DNA of 64,000 nt, from positions 2,720,001 through 2,784,000 of the forward strand of contig CAXXKJ010000002.1 in NCBI GenBank assembly GCA_963675295.2. The letters run 5' to 3'. The notes under the pieces are model-generated. The model was given only the letters and a program-made list of their open reading frames with translations, did no database searches and had not been told where the DNA came from. The stretch is from a bacterium. Lineage in GTDB: Bacteria > Electryoneota > Electryoneia > Electryoneales > Electryoneaceae. This document shows, one piece after another, positions 50,712-64,000 of this stretch. The translations under genes were made by a program, and so were the position numbers. Numbering within the stretch: the first letter of the stretch is position 1; each line of letters starts with the position of its first letter.

Positions 50712-50784
50712 TCCCCAGTAGCTCAATTGGCAGAGCGGGTGACTGTTAATCACTAGGTTGGCGGTTCAAGTCCGTCCTGGGGAG
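50712..50784 (+). tRNA. tRNA-Asn(GTT), CCA not encoded
   Basis: Acceptor TCCCCAG/CTGGGGA, D-arm AGCTCAATTGGCAGAGC, anticodon arm GGTGA-CTGTTAA-TCACT and T-loop GGTTCAAGTCC. Confidence 0.96.
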
Positions 50785-50794
50785 CAAGAAAAAC

Positions 50795-50822
50795 AAAGGG
50801 TTAGGCGATTGTCTGACCCTTT
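50795..50822 (+). terminator. Terminator after tRNA-Asn
   Basis: AAAGGGTTAGGCGATTGTCTGACCCTTT. Confidence 0.75.
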
Positions 50823-50831
50823 CTCTTTGTG

Positions 50832-51011
50832 ATTTGGTGCATATGAGGTGCAGTAGATCATTGCGCGCCCCTTATACCATATTTCCTGCACCTGTTGACT
50901 TCACAAGGTGCTGACTCCCTCTTTCCCACTCTTCAGACGATTCACGAAAATCCAAAGTCTACACCTACGCAGTGCACCAAATTGCACCGAGACTGCACCT
51001 GATGTGCACCT
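50832..51011. repeat. Putative integrase arm-type sites, left end
   Basis: ATTTGGTGCATATGAGGTGCAGT at 50832-50854 and inverted TGCACC at 50973, 50983, 50994 and 51005 (10-11 bp phasing). Confidence 0.7.
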
Positions 51012-51157
51012 AACGACAGCTTGAGTAGTTTTATATGCCTGTATTTCCAAGTATATATATCAATATCTCCTGTGATTATTTATCCCCTGTTGACTTTTCC
51101 CGCCCCGTGTTGTAGCTTGACGTAGTGCTTAGACAGCGACATTTTCAGGGAGGCGTC

Positions 51158-52252
51158 ATGGCAACCATCGTGAAGCGGAAATCGAAACGGACAGGCAAGG
51201 TCACCTACCGAGTCCAGATTCGTATGAAGGGGTTCGACCGGCTTGAGGCCACTTTCGACCGGAGGACAGACGCTCGGGATTGGGCGCACCAGACCGAGGC
51301 AGACCTCAAGGCAGGCAAGCACATTGAACGTGCAGAAGCAAAGAAACACACGCTCAACGATGTTATCGAACGCTATGTGGAAAACGTGGCTCCGATGAAG
51401 AAAAGCGGGATGAAGCAGGCACGGCAGCTTGATTGGTGGAAGGAACGGTACGGTGAGCGCCTCCTGTCCGATATCACTCCCGCACTTATTACAGAAGCAC
51501 GGGATATACTGAAACGGGAAGGTGGCCGTGTGCAGGATGCGAAGGGCCGTCCGATTCCTGAAGATGGTGCGAGCAATGCAACCGTCAATAGATACCTCGC
51601 GGCGCTATCGCATGTGTTCACGGTTGCTTCGAAGGAATGGCAATGGGTACGAGATAATCCCGTGTTGAAGGTCTCCCGGCTGAAGGAACCGCGTGGAAGA
51701 GTACGTTATCTGGAGAACGGCGAACAGGAACGATTGCTGGAAGCCTGCAAAGCATCCAAGAATCCCGACCTCTACCCTGCCGTGATCCTTGCGCTTTCCA
51801 CTGGCGCACGGCGGATGGAGATTTGGGGCGTGCGTTGGGATCAGGTTGATTTCCCGCGTGAATTGATCGTGCTGCACGAGACGAAGAACCAGGAACGGCG
51901 TGTGCTGCCGATCAAAGGCCGTGCGCTGGAAATCCTGCGTGAACGGTCGCGTGTTCGTTCGCTTGAATCGGATCTGATCTTCCCGAGCCGGAAAGACCCG
52001 AAGAAACCGATGGATCTCCGCGCTCCGTGGGAAGAAGCGTTGAAACAGGCAGGAATTGAAAACTTCCGCTGGCATGACTTGCGTCATACGGCGGCTTCGT
52101 TCCTCGCCATGAACGGTGCGACACCGGGAGAAATTGCCGAGGTGCTCGGTCACAAGACGTTGCAGATGGTCAAGCGATACAGTCACCTGTCCGAGGCGCA
52201 CACGGCAACGGTTGTTGAGAGCATGAACAAGCGATTTCTGGAGGGAGCGTGA
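51158..52252 (+). CDS. Tyrosine recombinase/integrase
   Basis: TGARRME, TKN, HDLRH, LGH and RYSH catalytic residues; N-terminal arm-binding-like YRVQIR region; GGAGG RBS. Confidence 0.95.
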   Translation: MATIVKRKSKRTGKVTYRVQIRMKGFDRLEATFDRRTDARDWAHQTEADLKAGKHIERAEAKKHTLNDVIERYVENVAPMKKSGMKQARQLDWWKERYGERLLSDITPALITEARDILKREGGRVQDAKGRPIPEDGASNATVNRYLAALSHVFTVASKEWQWVRDNPVLKVSRLKEPRGRVRYLENGEQERLLEACKASKNPDLYPAVILALSTGARRMEIWGVRWDQVDFPRELIVLHETKNQERRVLPIKGRALEILRERSRVRSLESDLIFPSRKDPKKPMDLRAPWEEALKQAGIENFRWHDLRHTAASFLAMNGATPGEIAEVLGHKTLQMVKRYSHLSEAHTATVVESMNKRFLEGA

Positions 52253-53143: not shown

Positions 53144-53499
53144 AGCAAATCCTCCCTAAAAGGTACGCGGCTCAAGTAGCGGCGTGGATAGAAAAACTAC
53201 AGGATCGGATCTTCGTCTTTCAAGAAGAAGAGATACCGGCTAAGCTCTGGAATCTCGCAGATAAAGCCCAGCAGCTTCTGAGTGGTGCTGACAGACTATT
53301 CCCTCTGTGCTTCAGCGATACCCAGCCTACGCACCTTCAACTACGTGATCCTGTAACGGGTGACTTGAATTGCAGGATTCGTGCGGTTAAACAAGATCGA
53401 AGCGGAACCGTCAGACTGGTGGTGGAATCACAGTCACGACCGGGGCAGCCGTTCCTGATAACCTTCCGCCAGTCCGGAGGACGGACGTATGTCAGTTGA
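53140..53499 (+). CDS. Hypothetical protein
   Basis: Overlaps both neighbours; GGAGG RBS. Confidence 0.55.
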   Translation: MKQILPKRYAAQVAAWIEKLQDRIFVFQEEEIPAKLWNLADKAQQLLSGADRLFPLCFSDTQPTHLQLRDPVTGDLNCRIRAVKQDRSGTVRLVVESQSRPGQPFLITFRQSGGRTYVS

Positions 53500-55504
53500 T
53501 CCGGCTGCAAGTGCAATCCTGAACGGATTGCCACAGGTGCCAGACCTTGACCAAATCCGGCGCGCGCATGGAATCTACAATGCCCTCGGCTACCGTACAT
53601 GCGAATTTGACCGTGGTACGAAAGCACCTCGTGAGCCCGGCTGGCCAACACGCACGGTCACAGAACCCAGGCTGCTGAACCTCGGGATCATACTTGGCGA
53701 GGCTAGCGGTTGGCTCACAGATGTTGACCTTGATACACCTGAAGCGATAGCAGCCGCACCCTGGATTCTACCAGCTACGAAGATGAAGAGCAGGCGTCAC
53801 GCTGCTCCGGTAAGTCACTTCTGGTATCGTTGCCAAGGTCTCCCACCAGACAAGACGCGTGTAGAGTACAACGATCCAAAACCTCCGAACGGCGGTCGCG
53901 CTTGTCTTGTCGAACTTCGCTGGGGCGGTAGAGGGGGCATACAAACCGCTGTACCTCCGTCTATCCTTCCCCGCTCTGACGGGTCCGGCGATGATCGGGT
54001 TGAGTGGGAGGACAAAAAGGCACTGACACCAGCAGAGGTCGATCCTGCAACCCTTCAACAGGCGGTGAGGAAGGTTGCCGCAGTCGCACTCCTTGCGCGA
54101 CGATGGGTGAGCGGAAAGCGTCATGCAATGGTCCTGCCTTGGGCTGGAACGCTCGCAAGAGGGGGGATCGGTGAAGATGCGGCTGTCCTATTGACGAAGG
54201 CGCTTTGTGCTGCTGCTGGCGATCCAGAAGTAGATGACCGCATTCAAGCCGTTGCCGATACCTATCAGAAACACGAGGCTGGGATCTCCAATTTTTCCGG
54301 CATACCCACCCTGAAATCCCACCTTGGCTCGAAGGAAACGGCACTGCTCTGCGAGTGGCTGGGAATCGAAACGGGGAGTGCACGTCTACCCCAACCGGAT
54401 CTATCCGTAGCTGAACGATATGTGCAGGTGAAAGACGATCTTTCTATTGAAGTCCTTGAAAACGCTCGCTTGGCAGAAGAAGACATTCAACTGCCCACAA
54501 TGCAGGATGTAATCAACAGGTGCGGGAAGATAACGTGGCTGTGGCAAGATTATCTGGCAAATGGTGCGATTACGCTTATCGTTGCGGATAAAGGCGTAGG
54601 CAAATCCTGGGTTGCACAAAGCATTGTAGCATGTGTAGTGCATGGGCTACCGTGGCCCAACTCAGCGTTCAACGAAGATTTAGACGGCGGATATGTGTTG
54701 TGGGTCGAAGCCGAGGGCCGAAAAGTACTGAACGCTAATCGGTTGAAGGGAATGAACGTTAATCTTGATCGGGTAGTAATGCCGGAAATCGATAGCGCGG
54801 GGATTGACTTGACCAAACCCCAGCATTGGTTGAAATTTGTCGGTGCGGCGCAAAGACCGGAGATCAAACTGATCGTGATTGACTCGCTATCCGGTGCTCA
54901 CGAAGGAGATGAAAACAAAACCCAGGACCAGCAACGTGTGATGAAGCGGCTCGCCAATTTCGCGGAATTTCTTCAGAAACCGATCATCGTGACGCACCAT
55001 CTACGAAAGAAGGCTCCAGGCCAGCAACGAAAAAATGTTGAGATAGACGATGTTCGGGGATCAGGCTCAATCACGCAGTACGCTCAGGTTATCGTTGGGA
55101 TTACCCGCACCAGCGATGAAAGCCCGGTGATGCACGTCAAGCAGATACGTAACAACCTCGTGGAACACCCGCGCGAACAACTCGAAGCACGTGTAGTGGA
55201 TGGAATTGTTGAATGGGATACCGTTGAATCATCCGATTCCGACACTTCCCATCAGTCACAAGCCTATAAGTTCTTCCTGTTCACACTCGAAGAAGCAGGA
55301 GACGGTGGAATCACCGCTAAGAAGCTGGTTGCGACCATGCAGCTGCAAGGACACAGTTACCAAGATTACCTGACAGCACGCGCCAAAGCGATTGTCGAAG
55401 ACCTTCTGGTAGAAGTTGATGAACGAGATATGCACGGCACGTTCCTCGGCAAGACACTGAAACTGGCGAAACCGATACCAGCTGGTGAAAACGATTCGTT
55501 CTAA
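53489..55504 (+). CDS. Prim-Pol primase fused to a RecA-like (AAA_25/RepA) helicase
   Basis: K.P...GW, NLGI..G..SGW..DVDLD, H.WY, PPS; Walker A-like ADKGVGKS, Walker B LIVIDS, HHLRK and RGSG.I. Confidence 0.85.
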   Translation: MSVDPAASAILNGLPQVPDLDQIRRAHGIYNALGYRTCEFDRGTKAPREPGWPTRTVTEPRLLNLGIILGEASGWLTDVDLDTPEAIAAAPWILPATKMKSRRHAAPVSHFWYRCQGLPPDKTRVEYNDPKPPNGGRACLVELRWGGRGGIQTAVPPSILPRSDGSGDDRVEWEDKKALTPAEVDPATLQQAVRKVAAVALLARRWVSGKRHAMVLPWAGTLARGGIGEDAAVLLTKALCAAAGDPEVDDRIQAVADTYQKHEAGISNFSGIPTLKSHLGSKETALLCEWLGIETGSARLPQPDLSVAERYVQVKDDLSIEVLENARLAEEDIQLPTMQDVINRCGKITWLWQDYLANGAITLIVADKGVGKSWVAQSIVACVVHGLPWPNSAFNEDLDGGYVLWVEAEGRKVLNANRLKGMNVNLDRVVMPEIDSAGIDLTKPQHWLKFVGAAQRPEIKLIVIDSLSGAHEGDENKTQDQQRVMKRLANFAEFLQKPIIVTHHLRKKAPGQQRKNVEIDDVRGSGSITQYAQVIVGITRTSDESPVMHVKQIRNNLVEHPREQLEARVVDGIVEWDTVESSDSDTSHQSQAYKFFLFTLEEAGDGGITAKKLVATMQLQGHSYQDYLTARAKAIVEDLLVEVDERDMHGTFLGKTLKLAKPIPAGENDSF

Positions 55505-55748
55505 TCCTAAAAATACCATGCAATATGCAATGCATCGGTCTCGTGAAAAGGGGGTTTTACACTACATGGTCGTTTTTATTGAACTTACGTCGAATGCGGT
55601 TTGCAACGCTTATGGCAAGGCACCATGGAATCGGGTGAGCCTTGCATACCGCGTAAGCTGTAAGTCGTTAAAAAACATCCATTGAGTCTAGGCCGCACCC
55701 CCAGTGCAACGCATTTTGCAATGCACACTGCAACGTATTTTTGGGATT
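55503..55748. promoter_or_regulatory. Putative replication origin bounded by a 32-bp imperfect inverted repeat
   Basis: 55503-55534 matches the reverse complement of 55717-55748 at 26/32 positions; repeated TGCAA units. Confidence 0.55.
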
Positions 55749-55772
55749 TTGATATCGAAAGGAGATCGAAGA

Positions 55773-56231
55773 ATGCCCACTGCTAAAAGAGCGACGCAAC
55801 AGCGAGGTAGACCGTTCAAACCCGGACAGAGCGGAAATCCGGCAGGCAGACCGCAAGGCTCGAAGCACAAAGCCACACTCGCGGCTGAGGCGCTGTTGGA
55901 TGGCGAGGCTGAGGCGTTGACACGGAAAGCTGTAGAAAAGGCGCTGGAAGGCGATACAACGGCGCTCAGGCTATGCTTGGAACGAATCGTGCCACCGCGC
56001 CGGGATCGGACCGTACCGTTCGATTTCCCCCAGGTAGAGACCGCTTCCGATACAGTCAAGGCAAAGACCGCGCTACTCCGGGTGGTTGCGGACGGTACCC
56101 TCTCCCCTGCCGAGGCGCAAGCGTTATCCGGACTGCTCGACGGATTCCTCAAGACCCTTGAAGTGGTCGAACTTGAAGAGCGGCTTGCTCGGGTTGAGGA
56201 GCGGATGGAACAGCAGAGGAACACACGTTGA
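55773..56231 (+). CDS. DUF5681-domain protein (terminase-small-subunit-like)
   Basis: PFKPGQSGNPAGRP.GS, A.EGD..AL..CLERI.P and a C-terminal coiled coil; AAGGAG RBS. Confidence 0.8.
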   Translation: MPTAKRATQQRGRPFKPGQSGNPAGRPQGSKHKATLAAEALLDGEAEALTRKAVEKALEGDTTALRLCLERIVPPRRDRTVPFDFPQVETASDTVKAKTALLRVVADGTLSPAEAQALSGLLDGFLKTLEVVELEERLARVEERMEQQRNTR

Positions 56232-57251: not shown

Positions 57252-59351
57252 ATGAAAATCAGCGTCTCTGTGATTCTAGTTTGCTTCACAGCACTCACAG
57301 CATCCGCACAGCCGGTTTGGGTTGACCGTGAGATACACTCCGGCCTTGACCAAGATTTGACCGCAAACATAGCTGATATTGATGGGGATGGAGACCTTGA
57401 CATTCTCTCTGCATCCTACAATTCCGATTACGTACAATGGTGGGATAATCTTGATGGTACTGGACTTAACTGGTCGTATCACCCTATTGGAAGTATAGAT
57501 GGTGCTCGTTCCTCGTACGCTGGCGATATTGATGGAGATGGTGATTTAGATGTTGTTGGTGCAGCATATTTTGATGATGATGTTATATGGTGGGAAAACG
57601 CAAATGGTAACGGGACAAACTGGATAGAACATACGGTAGATGACAATTTTAATGGCGTTAATGCAGTTTATATATCTGACATTGACGGTGATGGAGATAA
57701 TGATGTGATCGGTGGCTCTTGGTGGAATGGATTCAAGTGGTGGGAAAATATTGACGGTGATGGAAGGTTTTGGAATACATATACTGTTTCTGGAACAGAT
57801 TATGGTGTATCAGTTCACTGCGCTGACGTAGATAGTGATGGTGATATTGATGTATTAGGAGCATCAACAGACAACGAAAAACTATTTTGGTGTGAAAATG
57901 AGGATAGTAATGGCACATCATGGATCGAACATACTATGTCATTAAATTCGGGTGATGCAAGAGATGTAAATACGATAGATATTGACTCAGATGGCGATAT
58001 AGATATTATAGGTGCTATAGATCATAGTATTATGATTTGGGAAAATGACGGTACCAATAATATAAATGATTGGAATGAATATACTTCTGGAAACATAGGT
58101 GGTACAATGTCAGTATATGCCGTAGATGTTAATGAAGACGGTTGGATGGACATTCTATCTTCAATATGGTCGGGTACGCCGATATCTTGGTGGGAAAATG
58201 ATGGTACGAATGATATTTCTAACTGGTTAGAACACCTTGTAACAGAAGAAGGAGGAGAGTTTGGCAGTGTAAAAGAAGCATGTTCGGGAGATTTTGATTC
58301 TGATGGTGATTGGGACGTACTTGGAGCATCCTATGATTCAATCACGTGGTGGGAGCAACATTACCCGACAGAGATTTTAGCTCCAAATGGTGGTGAGGCT
58401 TGGAGAATCGGGACAACTCACGATATTGAATGGAGTACTACTGCGGACCAGACAATCACCCTTGATCTTCTTGATGGTGAAAATCTGGAACGTACATTGG
58501 CCGAGGATATTGAAAACTCTGGAATCCTTGAATGGACAATTCCGAACGATATTCAACCGGGTCAGAACTACTACATCCGGTGCACTATAGCTGATGGTTC
58601 CGAACAAGACGTTAGCGATGTAGCGTTTGCAATTACTGCTCTCCCCGGATTGACTCTTACTCCGCATTTACCCCCGATTATTATTCCGTCACAGGGTAAT
58701 GGTTTCTGGTACTGGGTTGAGATAAGTAATCACTCTCCATTTTCAGGAACCGGTCACTACTGGACTGAGGTCGTTTTACCGAATGGAAACACTTATGGCC
58801 CACTGTCAGTTACGCCCAAGACGCTAGAGCCGTGGCAGACGTTTGCCCCCGGCCTACCCTTCCCACAGTGGATACCAGCCTATGCACCGGCAGGTACATA
58901 CGATTTCGTGATGCACGTGGGTATCTACCCGAATTTGATCGTTGCAACAGATAGCTTCGAGTTTGAAAAGCTAGCAGGGACAAGCACGGTTTCCGTCCCT
59001 CAGTCTGCCTGGAACGTGGAGGACTGGCGCAACGAAGCATGGGAGACCACGGGTGCACAGGTAGCCACTCAGGAACCGCTCCCTAACGAGTTCAGCGTCT
59101 CCCCCGCGTATCCGAACCCCTTCAATGCCAGCATCTCGCTCACGGTGTTCCTGCCCGAACCGGCAGAACTGACTGTGACCGTCTACGACGTGCTCGGGCG
59201 CGAGGTGGCTATCCTTGCCAATGGACAACACTCTGCCGGGAAAAATCGGCTTACGTTTGAAGCATCCGGCTTGGCGAGCGGTCTGTATTTCGTCCGCGCG
59301 ACGGTTCCCGGCCACCTCGACCAGGTGCAGAAGGTGATGTTGGTTCGCTAG
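57252..59351 (+). CDS. Secreted 7-repeat FG-GAP/VCBS propeller with Ig-like domains and T9SS-type tail
   Basis: Signal peptide, seven DxDxDGD...WWEN-type repeats, APNGGE.W Ig-like domain, LPNG/PAGTY domain and YPNPFN tail. Confidence 0.88.
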   Translation: MKISVSVILVCFTALTASAQPVWVDREIHSGLDQDLTANIADIDGDGDLDILSASYNSDYVQWWDNLDGTGLNWSYHPIGSIDGARSSYAGDIDGDGDLDVVGAAYFDDDVIWWENANGNGTNWIEHTVDDNFNGVNAVYISDIDGDGDNDVIGGSWWNGFKWWENIDGDGRFWNTYTVSGTDYGVSVHCADVDSDGDIDVLGASTDNEKLFWCENEDSNGTSWIEHTMSLNSGDARDVNTIDIDSDGDIDIIGAIDHSIMIWENDGTNNINDWNEYTSGNIGGTMSVYAVDVNEDGWMDILSSIWSGTPISWWENDGTNDISNWLEHLVTEEGGEFGSVKEACSGDFDSDGDWDVLGASYDSITWWEQHYPTEILAPNGGEAWRIGTTHDIEWSTTADQTITLDLLDGENLERTLAEDIENSGILEWTIPNDIQPGQNYYIRCTIADGSEQDVSDVAFAITALPGLTLTPHLPPIIIPSQGNGFWYWVEISNHSPFSGTGHYWTEVVLPNGNTYGPLSVTPKTLEPWQTFAPGLPFPQWIPAYAPAGTYDFVMHVGIYPNLIVATDSFEFEKLAGTSTVSVPQSAWNVEDWRNEAWETTGAQVATQEPLPNEFSVSPAYPNPFNASISLTVFLPEPAELTVTVYDVLGREVAILANGQHSAGKNRLTFEASGLASGLYFVRATVPGHLDQVQKVMLVR

Positions 59352-59376
59352 CTAGACAAGCTACGGCAGATTTATC

Positions 59377-59409
59377 AAAGGGCGCTTCGGTCACATCGGG
59401 CGCCTTTTT
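59377..59409 (+). terminator. Probable terminator
   Basis: GGCGC...GCGCC stem followed by TTTTT. Confidence 0.5.
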
Positions 59410-59801
59410 CTGTAACTTCCTATACGAAGGCGTTCAAAGGGAAAGTTATGGAAAATCGTGTCCAACCCGCCCTATGTGCCCCACGAAAAATTTCCAGAAA
59501 ATATATCAGTGCGTTCGATCCCGAGGCTCCGTAGGTACCGGTTTACGGGGTATTTCCACGCAGGCCGTATCTCCACTACGGGGGCCGTTTCTGCGCAAGA
59601 CAGGTTTTCACGCACTTTTTTGTGTTGTCTCGCTGCAGCGCGCTGCGTGCAGCACCTTGAATCGGGGGATGTCAGCACACAACAAAACAAAAATGAGAAT
59701 CCGGATTGCTGGGATAGCAAGCCTGATACACAAACCGTATATTGATTTTCAGGGATCGATCTAAGCCACGCAGCTGGGATCAGTATCTGGGGGAGGGAAT
59801 C

Positions 59802-61637
59802 ATGAAAAAGCTTACCATCCTACTTTGTGCCATTCTGATGTGCACCACTGCATCCGCGCAAGAATGGACCGAACACGCGGTAGATTCTGAGTTTGAAGGT
59901 GCAAACTGCGTTTACGCGGCAGATGTGGATAATGATGGTGACATAGATGTGCTTGGCGCAGCAATTTTTGCAGATGACATTACTTGGTGGGAGAATCTGG
60001 ATGGTACAGGTCTGGTCTGGTTTGAACACATAGTGGATGGAGAATATGATGGTGTTCAAAGTGTTTACGCGGCAGATATGGACGGTGACGGCGATATCGA
60101 TGTTTTGGGCGCTGCATATTCTGTAGACGAGATCACTTGGTGGGAAAATTTAGATGGCAATGGATTGAGCTGGGCTGAACACGTGGTTGACGAGAATTTC
60201 AATGGATGCAGGAAAGCATATGCGGCTGATGTGGACGGCGACGGCGACATGGACGTACTCGGCGCAGCAAGTTCTTCCGATATGATCGCTTGGTGGGAGA
60301 ATCTCGATGGCACAGGCCTGAACTGGTCTGAACACATAGTTGATGAAATGTATAATTACGCGCATTGTGTTTTCACGGCGGATGTGAATGGAGATGGCAA
60401 CATGGATGTGCTTGGTGCTGCATGTATTGACGGCATTGTCTGGTGGGAGAATCTCGATGGTACAGGCCTGAACTGGTCTGAACACGTAGTAGATGAAATG
60501 TTTGATTGCGCGGTAAATGTTTACGCGGCAGATGTGGATAATGATGGTGACATAGATGTGCTAGGCGCAGCCCGAAATGTCAACGATACAGACGACATTG
60601 CCTGGTGGGAAAACGTAGATGGCGATGGGCTGAACTGGTCCGAACACTCGTTGGACGAGAATTACGACGGCGCTTGGGGTGTTCATGCAACGGATATGGA
60701 CGGCGATGGCGATGTGGACATACTAAGCTCTGCCCAACACGCCCAAGAGATCACCTATTGGGAGAATCTGGATGGTACAGGACTTACCTGGTTTGAACAC
60801 ACAGTGGATGACTCGTTTGATATGGCAAGGGGTGTTTTTGCTGAAGATGTAGATGGTGATGGCGACATCGATGTTCTGGGGGCAGCTCTATTTGCCGATG
60901 ATATCGCCTGGTGGGAACAGCTTGGATCTCCCGACCTGATCGACATCAGCCTGACCGCCCCGAATCCGCTAATCGTACCCCGGGGAGGGAGTTTTCAATA
61001 CGAAGCCCTGGTAACGAGCAACCTTCCTTCACCATACAATGTAGACTTCTGGACGTATGTCAGCTTGCCCAACGGTTCGCCTTATGGCCCGCTGCAACGG
61101 ATCAACAACGTTCCGATGACACCAACGACAATCATCGGACCGGTCAACCTGGGTCTTGCTATTCCCCAGACCGCCGTCCTGGGTGAGTACACCTTCCATA
61201 TGCAGGCTGGACGATTCCCGGCAACGGTGGTCGGGGAAGACGAGTTCCCCTTTGAAGTGGTCGCAGCTACCGGCACAAACGGCCTGCCATCCAGCGATTG
61301 GTCCGCATGGGGACTGGACCAGCTACACCAGACTAGTAGCGAAGAAACGGTTACTGATGTGGCTACTCCCACTACCTACTCGCTTGCCGGTGCGTATCCG
61401 AACCCGTTCAACGCGAGCACTACGCTGACCGTGAACCTGCCGGAGATAGCTGAATTGACCGTGGTCGTGTACAACACGCTTGGCCAGGAGGTGGTGCGAA
61501 TAGCGGACGGCACCATGTCGGCCGGGAAGCACGATTTCTCCTTCAACGCCAGCACGTTATCCAGCGGTGTCTATTTTGTCCAGGTACGGGTACCAGGCAA
61601 ACTGGACGAGTTACGAAAAGTCGTTTTGATGAAATAG
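59802..61637 (+). CDS. Secreted 7-repeat FG-GAP/VCBS propeller with T9SS-type tail
   Basis: MKK signal peptide, seven W.EH.VD...D.DGDGD.DVLGAA...WWEN repeats and YPNPFN tail. Confidence 0.9.
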   Translation: MKKLTILLCAILMCTTASAQEWTEHAVDSEFEGANCVYAADVDNDGDIDVLGAAIFADDITWWENLDGTGLVWFEHIVDGEYDGVQSVYAADMDGDGDIDVLGAAYSVDEITWWENLDGNGLSWAEHVVDENFNGCRKAYAADVDGDGDMDVLGAASSSDMIAWWENLDGTGLNWSEHIVDEMYNYAHCVFTADVNGDGNMDVLGAACIDGIVWWENLDGTGLNWSEHVVDEMFDCAVNVYAADVDNDGDIDVLGAARNVNDTDDIAWWENVDGDGLNWSEHSLDENYDGAWGVHATDMDGDGDVDILSSAQHAQEITYWENLDGTGLTWFEHTVDDSFDMARGVFAEDVDGDGDIDVLGAALFADDIAWWEQLGSPDLIDISLTAPNPLIVPRGGSFQYEALVTSNLPSPYNVDFWTYVSLPNGSPYGPLQRINNVPMTPTTIIGPVNLGLAIPQTAVLGEYTFHMQAGRFPATVVGEDEFPFEVVAATGTNGLPSSDWSAWGLDQLHQTSSEETVTDVATPTTYSLAGAYPNPFNASTTLTVNLPEIAELTVVVYNTLGQEVVRIADGTMSAGKHDFSFNASTLSSGVYFVQVRVPGKLDELRKVVLMK

Positions 61638-61671
61638 GCGGAAATTCTGCCAGTATCTGGGGGAGGGAATC

Positions 61672-63495
61672 GTGAAAAAGCTCGTCATTCTTTTCTTTGC
61701 CATCCTGATGTGCACCACTGCATCCGCACAAGAGTGGGTCGAACACGCCGTGGACGGCGATTCATTTGGTGCTTGTTCCGCATACGCCATGGATATTGAC
61801 GGCGATGGCGATATCGACGTGCTTGCTGCAGCGACGTTTGCCCATGAGATAACCTGGTCGGAGAACACAGATGGATTGGGCACAGTCTGGACCGAACACA
61901 CCGTGGACGGCAATTTTGGCTACACAGAGTCTGTTTACGCAACAGACATTGACGGTGACGGTGACATCGACGTAGTTGGTGCGGCGACTGAGGACCTAGT
62001 CACTTGGTGGGAAAATGTTGCTGGATCTGGCACGGTATGGACCGAACACACCGTGGACAACAATATTGATAACCCGCGTTCTGTTTACGCAACAGACATT
62101 GACGGTGACGGTGACACAGATGTGCTCGGTGCTGCATATTTTGGAGATGAAATCATTTGGTGGGAAAACGTTGACGGCGCGGGCAGTGCGTGGAACGAAC
62201 ACACTGTGGATGGTGCTTTTGAAGGTGCAATCTCGGTGTACGCAACAGATATGGACGGCGACGGCGACACCGATGTGCTTGGTGGGGGGTTTCATGCTGA
62301 CGAAATCACATGGTGGGAGAACACCAACGGTGTCGGCACAGTCTGGACAGAACATACCATAGACGGTGATTTCGAAGCGTTTTCCGTTTACGCAACAGAC
62401 ATTGACGGCGACGGCGATGTCGACGTTTTTGGTGGTGATACGGGTTTTTCTGTCCAGGGCCTCACGTGGTGGGAGAACGTTGATGGTGCCGGCACGGTGT
62501 GGACCGAATACCTATTGGACGGCGATTGCGTTGGCGTACGTTCCGTGTATGCGACAGATGTTGATGGCGACGGCGACACTGACTTGCTCGCAGCAGATCA
62601 GTGGGAGAACAACATCTCGTGGTGGGAAAACGAGAATGGCGATGGCAGCGAGTGGATCAGACACACTGTAATTGGAGATTTCGAGGGCCCTCAATCTGTT
62701 TACGCCACGGATATTGACGGTGACGGCGATATCGACGTACTTGGTGCGGCTAACCCAGGCTACGAAATAGCATGGTGGGAACAGGTGAATGCGGAACTCA
62801 CCCTTGTTCCTCATCAAACCACAGTTCCTTCCGGTGGTGGACACCTAATCTTCGATGTGACCTTATCTATCCCCGGAAATGTTCACATGCTTCATGCACA
62901 GTTTTGGACGGAGCTGACATTCCCGAATGGCGGCGAATGCTTGCTGCATATGCGTGCATTTGAAGTTGATCCGTTCATGAATTTATCGTTCTCAGATATC
63001 GCAACACAAAATGTGCCAGCTGCCGCTCCGCCTGGGATTTACACATACACCGCCAGTGCGGGTCGGAACGGTTTTCCTCGATTGATTGAAGTCACGGATT
63101 CCTTCGAGTTCGAGAAATTGGGCGATGCAACTGTATGCAGTAACTATGTGTTCAAGCCCGACGATTGGCAGTTCAACGGTCTGGACTTTGGATCGGAAGC
63201 GGGTGATGTTCAAGCGACCATTGTACCTGACGAGTTTATGGTGACAGCTCCCTACCCGAATCCCTTTAATTCGACCACCTGCATTAGTATCAGACTGCCG
63301 GAAACAACTAAGCTGGAGGTGACTGTATTTAGCGTGACCGGGCAGCGAGTCGTTAAACTGGCGAACGGCCGGTATCAGGCCGGATCGCACACGCTGACCT
63401 TCGACGCGTCCAACCTCGCGTCCGGCCTGTACTTCATCCGCGCCACCGTGCCTGGCCAGCTCGACCAAGTGCAGAAGGTGATACTGGTGCGCTGA
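61672..63495 (+). CDS. Secreted 7-repeat FG-GAP/VCBS propeller with T9SS-type tail
   Basis: Same architecture; GTG start in a leader nearly identical to that of the preceding gene. Confidence 0.9.
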   Translation: MKKLVILFFAILMCTTASAQEWVEHAVDGDSFGACSAYAMDIDGDGDIDVLAAATFAHEITWSENTDGLGTVWTEHTVDGNFGYTESVYATDIDGDGDIDVVGAATEDLVTWWENVAGSGTVWTEHTVDNNIDNPRSVYATDIDGDGDTDVLGAAYFGDEIIWWENVDGAGSAWNEHTVDGAFEGAISVYATDMDGDGDTDVLGGGFHADEITWWENTNGVGTVWTEHTIDGDFEAFSVYATDIDGDGDVDVFGGDTGFSVQGLTWWENVDGAGTVWTEYLLDGDCVGVRSVYATDVDGDGDTDLLAADQWENNISWWENENGDGSEWIRHTVIGDFEGPQSVYATDIDGDGDIDVLGAANPGYEIAWWEQVNAELTLVPHQTTVPSGGGHLIFDVTLSIPGNVHMLHAQFWTELTFPNGGECLLHMRAFEVDPFMNLSFSDIATQNVPAAAPPGIYTYTASAGRNGFPRLIEVTDSFEFEKLGDATVCSNYVFKPDDWQFNGLDFGSEAGDVQATIVPDEFMVTAPYPNPFNSTTCISIRLPETTKLEVTVFSVTGQRVVKLANGRYQAGSHTLTFDASNLASGLYFIRATVPGQLDQVQKVILVR

Positions 63496-63722
63496 AGCAG
63501 CCCGGTTCCACAGGGAGCTTCTAAGAGTCGAAAGCGGCCACAGGTCAAATACCTTGACCATGTGGCCGTTTGTCGCTCAGGGGCGCTCTATTGGCCTTTC
63601 TGGCGTGTAGAATCTCAAGCAGCGTACAGGAAAGCGATCAGGGATGTGGTTATGGTACGAGTTACACTATTTGATTTCGAATCCGGCAGAAGGCCCATCC
63701 CGCATGGCTTTCGCCGCTCTAA

Positions 63723-63745
63723 ATTTGGTGCAAATGAGGTGCAGT
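63723..63745. repeat. Putative integrase arm-type site, right end
   Basis: ATTTGGTGCAAATGAGGTGCAGT, 22/23 identical to 50832-50854. Confidence 0.8.
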
Positions 63746-63848
63746 GAGGACAACAAACTGCCATATTCAGCAAACAGCGCCAAGAGTTAACCTCTTAAAG
63801 AAACAATTGGTAACAATTGCAGCTTGTTGTGATATATGGTATTGCTAA

Positions 63849-63895
63849 GACTACGGATCAGGAGGTTTGGGGTTCGAATCCCTACAAGAGTACCA
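63849..63895 (+). pseudogene. 3' half of tRNA-Arg(ACG), att-type fragment
   Basis: GA-CTACGGA-TCAGG-AGGTT-TGGGG-TTCGAAT-CCCTA-CAAGAGT-A-CCA; no D-arm or 5' acceptor strand upstream. Confidence 0.8.
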
Positions 63896-63899
63896 TATG

Positions 63900-63929
63900 A
63901 AAGGGTCAGGCAGCTGCCTGACCCTTTTT
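63900..63929 (+). terminator. Terminator after the tRNA fragment
   Basis: Perfect palindrome AAAGGGTCAGGCAGCTGCCTGACCCTTT followed by further Ts. Confidence 0.75.
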
Positions 63930-64000
63930 CGTAGCGCAAGACGGACTAGATTCAGAAAACGAATCGAACTCGGAAAGAAACCAGATCAACCACTGGATCA

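Follow-up and report, generated by a model that had tools for sequence, protein, structure and literature searches.

An intact tRNA-Asn(GTT) gene, a tyrosine integrase gene and a 3' fragment of a tRNA-Arg(ACG) gene stand in one orientation in the window, that is, in the whole 64,000-nt stretch of DNA analysed here (G000:C2:2720001-2784000, from the 4.81-Mb, two-contig genome G000). Positions without a prefix are those of the window, and the features are collected in Table 1. The tRNA-Asn gene is the sole full tRNA that ARAGORN and Rfam recognise in the window, in agreement with the first-pass annotation, which had placed an intact tRNA-Asn at the left end of an integrated island. Its 3' part, from 50741 onward, is repeated exactly at C2:2795962, beyond the window, and a search of the window itself at up to three mismatches returned one match only, the gene itself. 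The hairpin behind the gene belongs to an island-borne tRNA module; similar hairpins stand behind every fragment of this island family. It is followed by a P' arm with a proximal pair and a distal, inverted cluster of GGTGCA sites, and the integrase gene begins ~370 nt past the tRNA. The inverted four-site cluster is also present in G001 and G007. Across the 4.81-Mb genome, the direct pair GGTGCA-N5-GGTGCA is found in three related places only (C2:2770836, 2783727 and 2795840); the same scan also returned the inverted cluster beside the integrase gene (2770973-2771010) and two unrelated matches.

Table 1. Features of the tRNA-Asn array that lie within the window
Feature	Position	Strand	Evidence
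Intact tRNA-Asn(GTT), attL core of the array	50712-50785	+	ARAGORN; Rfam 67.4 bits; exact 50-nt repeat
Hairpin and T-run behind tRNA-Asn, terminator-like	50795-50825	+	81% alike to the hairpin behind the Arg fragment
P' arm, proximal arm-type site, two GGTGCA with 5-nt spacing, ATTTGGTGCATATGAGGTGCAGT	50832-50854	+	22/23 identical to 63723-63745
P' arm, distal cluster, four inverted GGTGCA (TGCACC) upstream of int	50973-51010	-	Repeat/motif scan
Tyrosine integrase of unit 1, likely start ATG 51158	51125-52252	+	Pfam, PHROG, translation
Primase-polymerase/AAA_25 helicase-like replication protein of unit 1	53489-55504	+	Pfam, PHROG
DUF5681 protein, unit 1 backbone	55704-56231	+	Pfam 8.3e-16
Three FG-GAP cargo proteins with type IX secretion C-terminal sorting domain	57252-59351, 59742-61637, 61672-63495	+	Pfam FG-GAP_3, Por_Secre_tail
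Right-end module of unit 1: 3' end of the last cargo gene and P arm	63251-63848	+	blastn
P arm, arm-type site, ATTTGGTGCAAATGAGGTGCAGT	63723-63745	+	Identical to the site before the true Asn attR
Non-cognate tRNA-Arg(ACG) 3' fragment, anticodon stem to ACCA, internal att relic	63849-63897	+	Sequence match
Hairpin and T-run behind the Arg fragment	about 63899-63930	+	81% alike to 50795-50825 over 31 nt

The stretch between the tRNA-Asn gene and the Arg fragment forms unit 1, which measures 13,063 bp, lies entirely inside the window and encodes the integrase, two small ORFs, the Prim-Pol/AAA_25 protein, the DUF5681 protein, one further ORF and three FG-GAP proteins. The integrase matches Phage_integrase (PF00589, 4.2e-31) and Int_N (PF24624, 5.1e-08) in Pfam and the integrase family PHROG 1 (1.3e-66), and the HDLRHT and LGH..RY motifs are intact in its translation. 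The replication protein carries AAA_25 (5.1e-28), DnaB_C and Prim-Pol domains, matches PHROG 239 (DNA primase/helicase, 6.3e-23) and is encoded by a single-copy gene in G000. The order of an integrase, small ORFs and then a Prim-Pol/AAA_25 protein resembles that of small integrative replicative elements and of P4-like or PICI-like phage satellites. No capsid, packaging or helper-interaction genes were identified in unit 1 with PHROGs and Pfam, where the PHROG matches of the backbone are confined to the integrase, the primase/helicase and families of unknown function and three of the six backbone ORFs are without a PHROG match, and the cargo consists of secreted FG-GAP proteins. Unit 1 likewise showed no genes for conjugation or a relaxase. 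The cargo genes (57252-63495) are built from ~153-nt repeats that are 60-88% alike. Similar FG-GAP genes of the type IX secretion (T9SS) kind also fill other units and sibling islands, so the island family seems to traffic one class of secreted proteins.

Unit 1 ends in a junction of the att type, in which a P arm is followed, after a spacer of ~105 nt, by a tRNA 3' half and a hairpin. The tRNA half is that of tRNA-Arg(ACG) and starts at the anticodon arm, as had been recognised before; it matches 45 of 47 bases of the single tRNA-Arg(ACG) gene of G000 (C2:3167004-3167080; BLAST E 1e-15). The first 38 nt are exact and are followed by two substitutions in the acceptor strand (CAAGAGT vs CAGGCGT). 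CAGGCGT is retained in the tRNA-Arg(ACG) of all seven relatives that were read, and the two changes in the fragment therefore look like decay of an unused tRNA copy of the lineage's own. The 23-bp arm-like repeat that the first-pass annotation had described at both ends was recounted at 22/23, and the homology of the two terminators, which it had counted at 23/28, holds for the hairpins over their whole 31 nt. Neither P' arm sites nor an integrase remnant were found behind the hairpin of the Arg fragment.

The cognate counterpart of the tRNA-Asn gene lies further to the right. An exact 50-nt copy of the Asn 3' half is present at C2:2795962-2796011, 11,962 bp past the window end. The repeat starts with GACT of the anticodon stem and includes 6 nt of the sequence behind the gene; the P arm before it has an arm site, TTTGGTGCAAATGAGGTGCAGTG, identical to that of the Arg junction. 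This copy and the gene are the only two Asn 3' halves in G000 at up to eight mismatches in 44 nt. The features that define a tRNA-borne island are thus found here as a tyrosine integrase next to a restored tRNA gene and a far-end repeat, which is the Asn copy at C2:2795962, outside the window. The right-end module of unit 1 is 70.2% alike over 637 nt (blastn) to the stretch before this true attR (C2:2795364-2795961). The Arg fragment is an internal, non-cognate junction within the Asn array and not, as had been assumed at first, the far end of the island.

Between the two junctions lies unit 2, of 12,064 bp, which encodes a hypothetical ORF, an IS200-type transposase, FG-GAP/T9SS proteins, a sigma-54 response regulator, a histidine kinase with FG-GAP repeats and a beta-helix T9SS protein. 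No credible remnant of an integrase or of the backbone was detected in unit 2 by tblastn at E values up to 10 (best E 0.008). A search for a syntenic donor of unit 2 in 21 genomes, including G000, gave only copies of the insertion sequence and domain-level matches to FG-GAP and sorting domains. The IS200-type element itself is ~553 bp long (C2:2784469-2785021; Y1 transposase, Pfam 4.1e-36), starts 469 nt past the window end and lies ~570 nt to the right of the Arg fragment. Seven more copies at 99-100% identity occur on both contigs, so the element looks recently active.

Behind the Asn fragment follows unit 3 (16,389 bp, C2:2796006-2812394), which is without an integrase and without an end fragment; it includes, in a partial annotation, a T9SS protein, a sulfatase and further genes. 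It abuts the native terminator of tRNA-Asn (C2:2812395-2812440); a further sorting-domain gene ends immediately before this terminator, and neither a P arm nor a fragment separates the two. The limits of the array are set by comparison with G001, a genome of the same genus, in which the left flank is syntenic through the tRNA-Asn gene, the hairpin and the first arm site (83-85%). The native terminator behind the Asn fragment of G001 matches C2:2812395-2812440, and the sequence behind that fragment maps to G000 only from C2:2812554. Since the native terminator and the right flank shared with G001 resume there, the accessory stretch runs from window position 50786 to C2:2812394. Both flanks of the tRNA-Asn site are thus common to the two genomes and the content between them differs; G001 represents a differently filled site, and no truly empty tRNA-Asn site was seen. 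In G001, a proximal P' arm site is found right behind tRNA-Asn and is followed by FG-GAP cargo (G001:C39:168449-168589), and a distal arm cluster with int is found behind a sorting-domain gene without an intervening tRNA fragment (G001:C71:1-3407). The G001 locus is a differently decayed array at the same tRNA gene.

Att-type junctions, each consisting of a P arm and a tRNA fragment, mark the locus at 63723-63929 and at C2:2795840-2796050. From the Asn attR past the window, the late return of synteny and the fact that the island at tRNA-Arg ends in Arg fragments (see below), it follows that the locus is a three-unit array of ~41.6 kb. A tandem array had been the third option of the first-pass annotation, and it is this option that is borne out, with three units between flanks that are bounded by the synteny with G001.

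Three further places in G000 hold an Arg 3' half besides the window: the gene, C2:about 3195718 and, as a shorter relic, C2:3209007. The tRNA-Arg(ACG) gene heads its own sibling island, the integrase of which is 61-63% identical to that of the window. This island is a multi-unit array as well (C2:3167004-3209034), with int at 3167421 and a P arm at 3174447. It had been suggested to look behind the intact tRNA-Arg(ACG) for a sibling island that ends in a tRNA-Asn fragment; the island is present, but it ends in Arg fragments and no Asn fragment was found at this locus. Instead, it holds a second mismatch. A 46-nt exact fragment of tRNA-Pro(GGG) (C2:3174580-3174625) lies 7.5 kb into the Arg array, with a GGGGCA P arm before it and a hairpin behind it, and marks the end of the first unit, the one with the integrase. 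Another ~21 kb on, at C2:about 3195718, comes the cognate Arg fragment, which is succeeded by a relic P' arm site. A decayed P arm with an Arg-like relic, the loop of which reads TCG, is found at C2:3208986-3209034.

The tRNA-Pro(GGG) gene in turn carries an island (G000:C2:3700103-3710031) with GGGGCA arm sites and a cognate Pro fragment at 3709946. Of the integrase gene of this island, only about the first 500 nt remain, fused to the terminal part of a gene with a sorting domain. The first unit of the Arg array and the Pro island are 92-98% identical in P'-int, beginning with the arm site, whereas the tRNA half and hairpin to the left of this site are only 56-72% alike. The last dozen bases of the P arm at the Pro fragment in the Arg array (CTGGATTGGACT) match those of the Pro island (CTGGATAGGACT) and are unlike those of the two Arg-type ends (ACAGAACT). 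A Pro-type P arm thus stands beside a Pro fragment, and the junction is therefore a native Pro-type right end within the Arg array and not a hybrid made in the loop. The anticodon stems of tRNA-Arg(ACG) and tRNA-Pro(GGG) have CCTGA/TCAGG exactly in common.

Genome-wide, 12 tRNA 3' fragments lie outside genes in G000, ten of them cognate and two non-cognate. Both non-cognate fragments close the integrase-bearing first unit of an array, and both arrays belong to the same integrase family. Further islands in G000 are indicated by cognate fragments of Arg(CCT), Gln(CTG), Lys(TTT), where the island measures 51 kb, Leu(TAG) and Lys(CTT), the last with two fragments and thus a tandem. Islands occupy nine or more of the tRNA genes in G000. 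ARAGORN also reports, at G000:C2:4439111-4439194, a tRNA that it leaves without an identity and whose anticodon has four bases (tttc); the 46 matches of the Rfam tRNA model do not include it.

The integrase family, defined as the homologues at E 1e-40 or better among 79 genomes of the phylum, comprises 22 loci in 12 genomes. A tRNA gene lies directly upstream and in the same orientation at 16 of the 22 loci, and nine kinds of tRNA are represented: Asn, Arg(ACG), Arg(CCT), Met, Pro(GGG), Ser(TGA), Thr(CGT), Lys(CTT) and Lys(TTT). The sites share one layout, in which a P arm with a pair of arm sites is followed by a ~105-nt spacer, the tRNA 3' half, a hairpin and a P' arm, the latter made up of a second pair of arm sites and the inverted cluster, and then by int. 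In every island with both ends readable, the identity between gene and fragment begins at GACT in the anticodon stem, and it extends to the left of GACT by 0-1 nt in the Asn, Arg and Pro islands. With this start of identity, the family falls in the class of anticodon-centred attP, as far as class A is set out in the available text of the Islander survey (PMC4383910).

The arm sites do not follow the tRNA. GGTGCA arms are combined with an Asn core in G000, G001, G003 and G007 and with Thr(CGT) and Arg(CCT) cores in G005, and in G000 the GGGGCA arms accompany an Arg(ACG) core at one island and a Pro(GGG) core at another. Arm type and tRNA core are thus decoupled in the integrase family. In none of the 16 family genomes was a sibling found that combines GGTGCA arms with an Arg(ACG) core, and exact-pattern searches of metagenome contigs, one with the P arm/Arg junction and one with the arm site, gave no match in either case. 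The arm-site pattern, with 16 specified bases, matched at least 117 stretches in the genome_contigs collection, almost all of them chance matches in unrelated phyla. In G005, a pair of arm sites of the GGTGCA type stands ~50 nt behind a tRNA-Arg(CCT) 3' fragment (G005:C53:63877-63985, L179). This is an internal junction that retains its P' arm, unlike the junctions in G000.

Cognate far-end fragments were found for the Asn, Arg and Pro islands of G000 and in G001, G003, G008 (two islands) and G012, and the four island regions that were checked in other genomes contain cognate fragments only. In the integrase tree, which left out two truncated copies among the 22 loci (the G000 Pro locus L163 and L159 of G001), the Asn clade is solid (100/98). 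The Arg(ACG) integrases do not group together, and the Arg(ACG) integrase of G012 is sister to the Thr(CGT) integrase of the same genome (99/97). Seven of the 17 inner branches of the tree are open, and its backbone thus gives no indication of the ancestral target.

The anatomy of the Asn locus, the cognate attR, the limits of the array, the modular att sites and the recurrence at tRNA-Arg are established by these observations. For the origin of the Arg junction, we lean, with little more than even confidence, to a three-unit Asn array into which the Arg end was brought by homologous recombination among sibling tyrosine-integrase islands; the joining by this route, its direction and its donor are what we infer. 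Members of the family would cross over in the anticodon loop, with an attP of the form P arm/tRNA 3' half and hairpin/P' arm-int, and the Arg fragment, between its P arm and its hairpin, would be the native right end of a sibling that targeted tRNA-Arg(ACG). In the circular form, siblings share two conserved modules on either side of the tRNA module, the end of the cargo gene with the P arm and the P' arm with int, and crossovers would fall in these shared modules, in P'-int on the left and in the cargo-gene end and P arm on the right. Such recombination, either between a resident island and a sibling circle or with incoming DNA from a sibling array, would carry the right end of the sibling, its tRNA fragment and what follows into an array at another tRNA. 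The Arg junction of the window would then be the same kind of event as the Pro junction of the Arg array, with a donor outside the genomes searched.

Recombination among siblings accounts for the native-looking junction at the Arg locus, the near-identical integrase ends, the intact head tRNAs and the lack of a reciprocal product. The first-pass annotation had likewise proposed that sibling islands with shared arms and different tRNA targets recombined, and this part of its proposal is the most likely; the chromosomal rearrangement or misassembly to which it had tied the event is not what the locus indicates. Against recombination, the present likeness between the right-end module of unit 1 and that of unit 2 is just 70%, which makes them a poor RecA substrate, and the longest exact stretch that they share is ~23 nt, the arm site. 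In addition, a Campbell-type insertion predicts a second P'-int behind the Arg hairpin. This is absent, so that a deletion, or a double crossover with the donor, must be added.

The window junction also differs from the Pro junction in one respect that bears on its origin. In the Asn array, the core-proximal P arm GCTAAGACT is identical at the Arg junction and at two Asn junctions, and an Asn-type arm that was joined to Arg sequence exactly at the loop is therefore an equally good reading of the Arg junction. Because the P arm of the Arg junction is indistinguishable from those that precede Asn, there is room for a rather improbable alternative, in which the integrase itself inserted an Arg(ACG)-core sibling or integrase-less cassette (the present unit 2) into a spare Asn fragment at the right end of unit 1. 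An anticodon-loop crossover of this kind would leave the order P1/Arg 3' half-hairpin-unit 2-P2/Asn 3' half. The switch from P arm to Arg falls exactly at GACT, where the anticodon loop region starts and where the family crosses over, and the P arm is 78% alike, up to its last base, to the P arm preceding the Asn fragment in G001. Both P arms bear the arm site that is cognate to the unit 1 integrase, the anticodon arms of tRNA-Asn and tRNA-Arg share TGACT...ATCA, and a single event would be enough and would break no essential tRNA. However, the two anticodon loops differ at four of seven positions (CTGTTAA vs CTACGGA), and mismatches in the overlap normally block strand exchange by tyrosine recombinases. 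The Arg array moreover shows the reverse of what off-target insertion would give, with a Pro-type P arm at the Pro fragment and an Arg-type one at the distal Arg fragment, and unit 2 has no P' arm or integrase behind the hairpin.

A crossover at the boundary between hairpin and P' arm, with the tRNA fragment as a mere passenger from a former target and a mismatch of ends as the normal state, is very unlikely. The high identity between the Arg and Pro siblings does start exactly at the P' arm site behind the hairpin, the sequence behind the hairpin is unrelated to P' in three of four internal junctions, and similar hairpins (AAGGG(G)T.A...) stand behind all fragments. Nevertheless, every array examined ends in a cognate fragment with identity from the anticodon stem, and the hairpin loops of the Asn attL and attR differ (GATTGT vs AAACG), so that the overlap cannot be in the hairpin.

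Public sequencing runs bear on the integrity of the Arg junction. In three runs of one sample, possibly the source sample, contigs end and restart within the 38 nt shared with the tRNA-Arg gene, as they do because the k-mer graph must break there, and no contig bridges this stretch in any of the four public runs, all of which are represented by contigs. Contig depth to the left and right of the junction is 38.3/39, 95.1/95.3 and 89.9/89.5 in the three runs; in the fourth, from another sample, the junction stretch is covered in pieces and at low depth. The alternative join would give the sole tRNA-Arg(ACG) gene a non-pairing acceptor strand and thereby destroy it, and with this and the equal depth a misassembly, which the first-pass annotation had considered, is unlikely. 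Likewise, since G000 has only two Asn 3' halves and the Arg island ends in Arg, no reciprocal exchange or rearrangement is indicated. That an Asn and an Arg island recombined in a way that moved chromosome arms, or that the assembler joined them across repeats, is least probable of all: the unbridged 38 nt and the repetitive cargo would allow it, but the same contig bears the cognate Asn attR 12 kb further downstream, the tRNA-Arg locus is whole and has cognate fragments of its own and no Asn fragment, both flanks of the array are syntenic with G001, and the depth and the acceptor strand speak against another join.

The Islander survey lists 2083 anticodon-centred islands and 125 tandem arrays among 3919 islands (Hudson, Lau and Williams 2015; PMC4383910). 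As far as its available text describes class A arrays, the Asn array resembles them in having an integrase beside the restored tRNA and a 3' fragment from the anticodon arm at the far end, and it shows the same order of units, with newer ones next to the gene and older ones pushed outward. Islander arrays are recognised, according to the same text, by fragments cognate to their own tDNA and by an integrase for each unit (PMC4383910). Unlike these, the Asn array has one internal non-cognate junction, which closes unit 1, no end fragment for unit 3, and an integrase in unit 1 only.

An integrase-bearing unit beside integrase-less units bounded by att sites is also reminiscent of the accretion of streptococcal ICEs with cis-mobilizable elements (CIMEs), a subject to which PMC13651849 is related. 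As in that accretion, the composite in the Asn array could excise via its outer sites. In ICE/CIME accretion, all att cores are the same. The inner core of the Asn array differs, and the inner unit cannot, therefore, leave alone. As the attL and the Asn fragment have 50 exact bases and cognate arm sites in common, their recombination could, on the evidence of these sites, release 25.3 kb in one piece, made up of units 1 and 2. With its different anticodon-loop overlap, the Arg junction cannot pair with attL and should be inert; it would thereby bind the units into a composite.

For mycobacteriophage Ms6, a change of the core showed experimentally that the attP core, and not the arms, decides which tRNA gene is used, according to the available text of PMC1762012. 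This rule fits the observation that one arm type serves several tRNAs in the family of G000, although the Ms6 work was engineered and concerned the T loop of tRNA-Ala genes, and the case of G000 rests on comparison, with the anticodon loop as the site. Arrays with non-cognate fragments inside them were not found described in the literature searched on tandem tRNA islands and site switching, including the available text of PMC4383910. Tandem tRNA arrays and anticodon-centred attP are known from that text; what differs is an internal junction with the fragment of another tRNA, present twice in one genome.

These junctions matter in practice, as island finders rely on a tRNA gene and its cognate fragment, and a non-cognate internal fragment can mislead people and software on the ends of an island and can also suggest misassembly where there is none. 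G000 shows the pattern twice and has sibling integrase ends that are 92-98% identical beside different tRNA genes, which makes it a compact natural case of target switching by tRNA-specific integrases, and also of the fusion of islands into larger composites that move secreted-protein cargo. Being made up of FG-GAP proteins for type IX secretion in an environmental bacterium, this cargo is without relevance to health or safety. More speculatively, and at a low probability, the non-cognate junctions might be footprints of target switching, in which the tRNA 3' half and hairpin would form an exchangeable cassette between conserved P and P' arms, arrays at different tRNA genes would trade whole units and a mismatched inner core would lock adjacent units into a larger mobile composite. 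Part of this trading may be performed by the integrase itself, between tRNAs with similar anticodon stems. If the cassette reading is true, a single integrase and arm type would colonise several tRNA genes in one genome.
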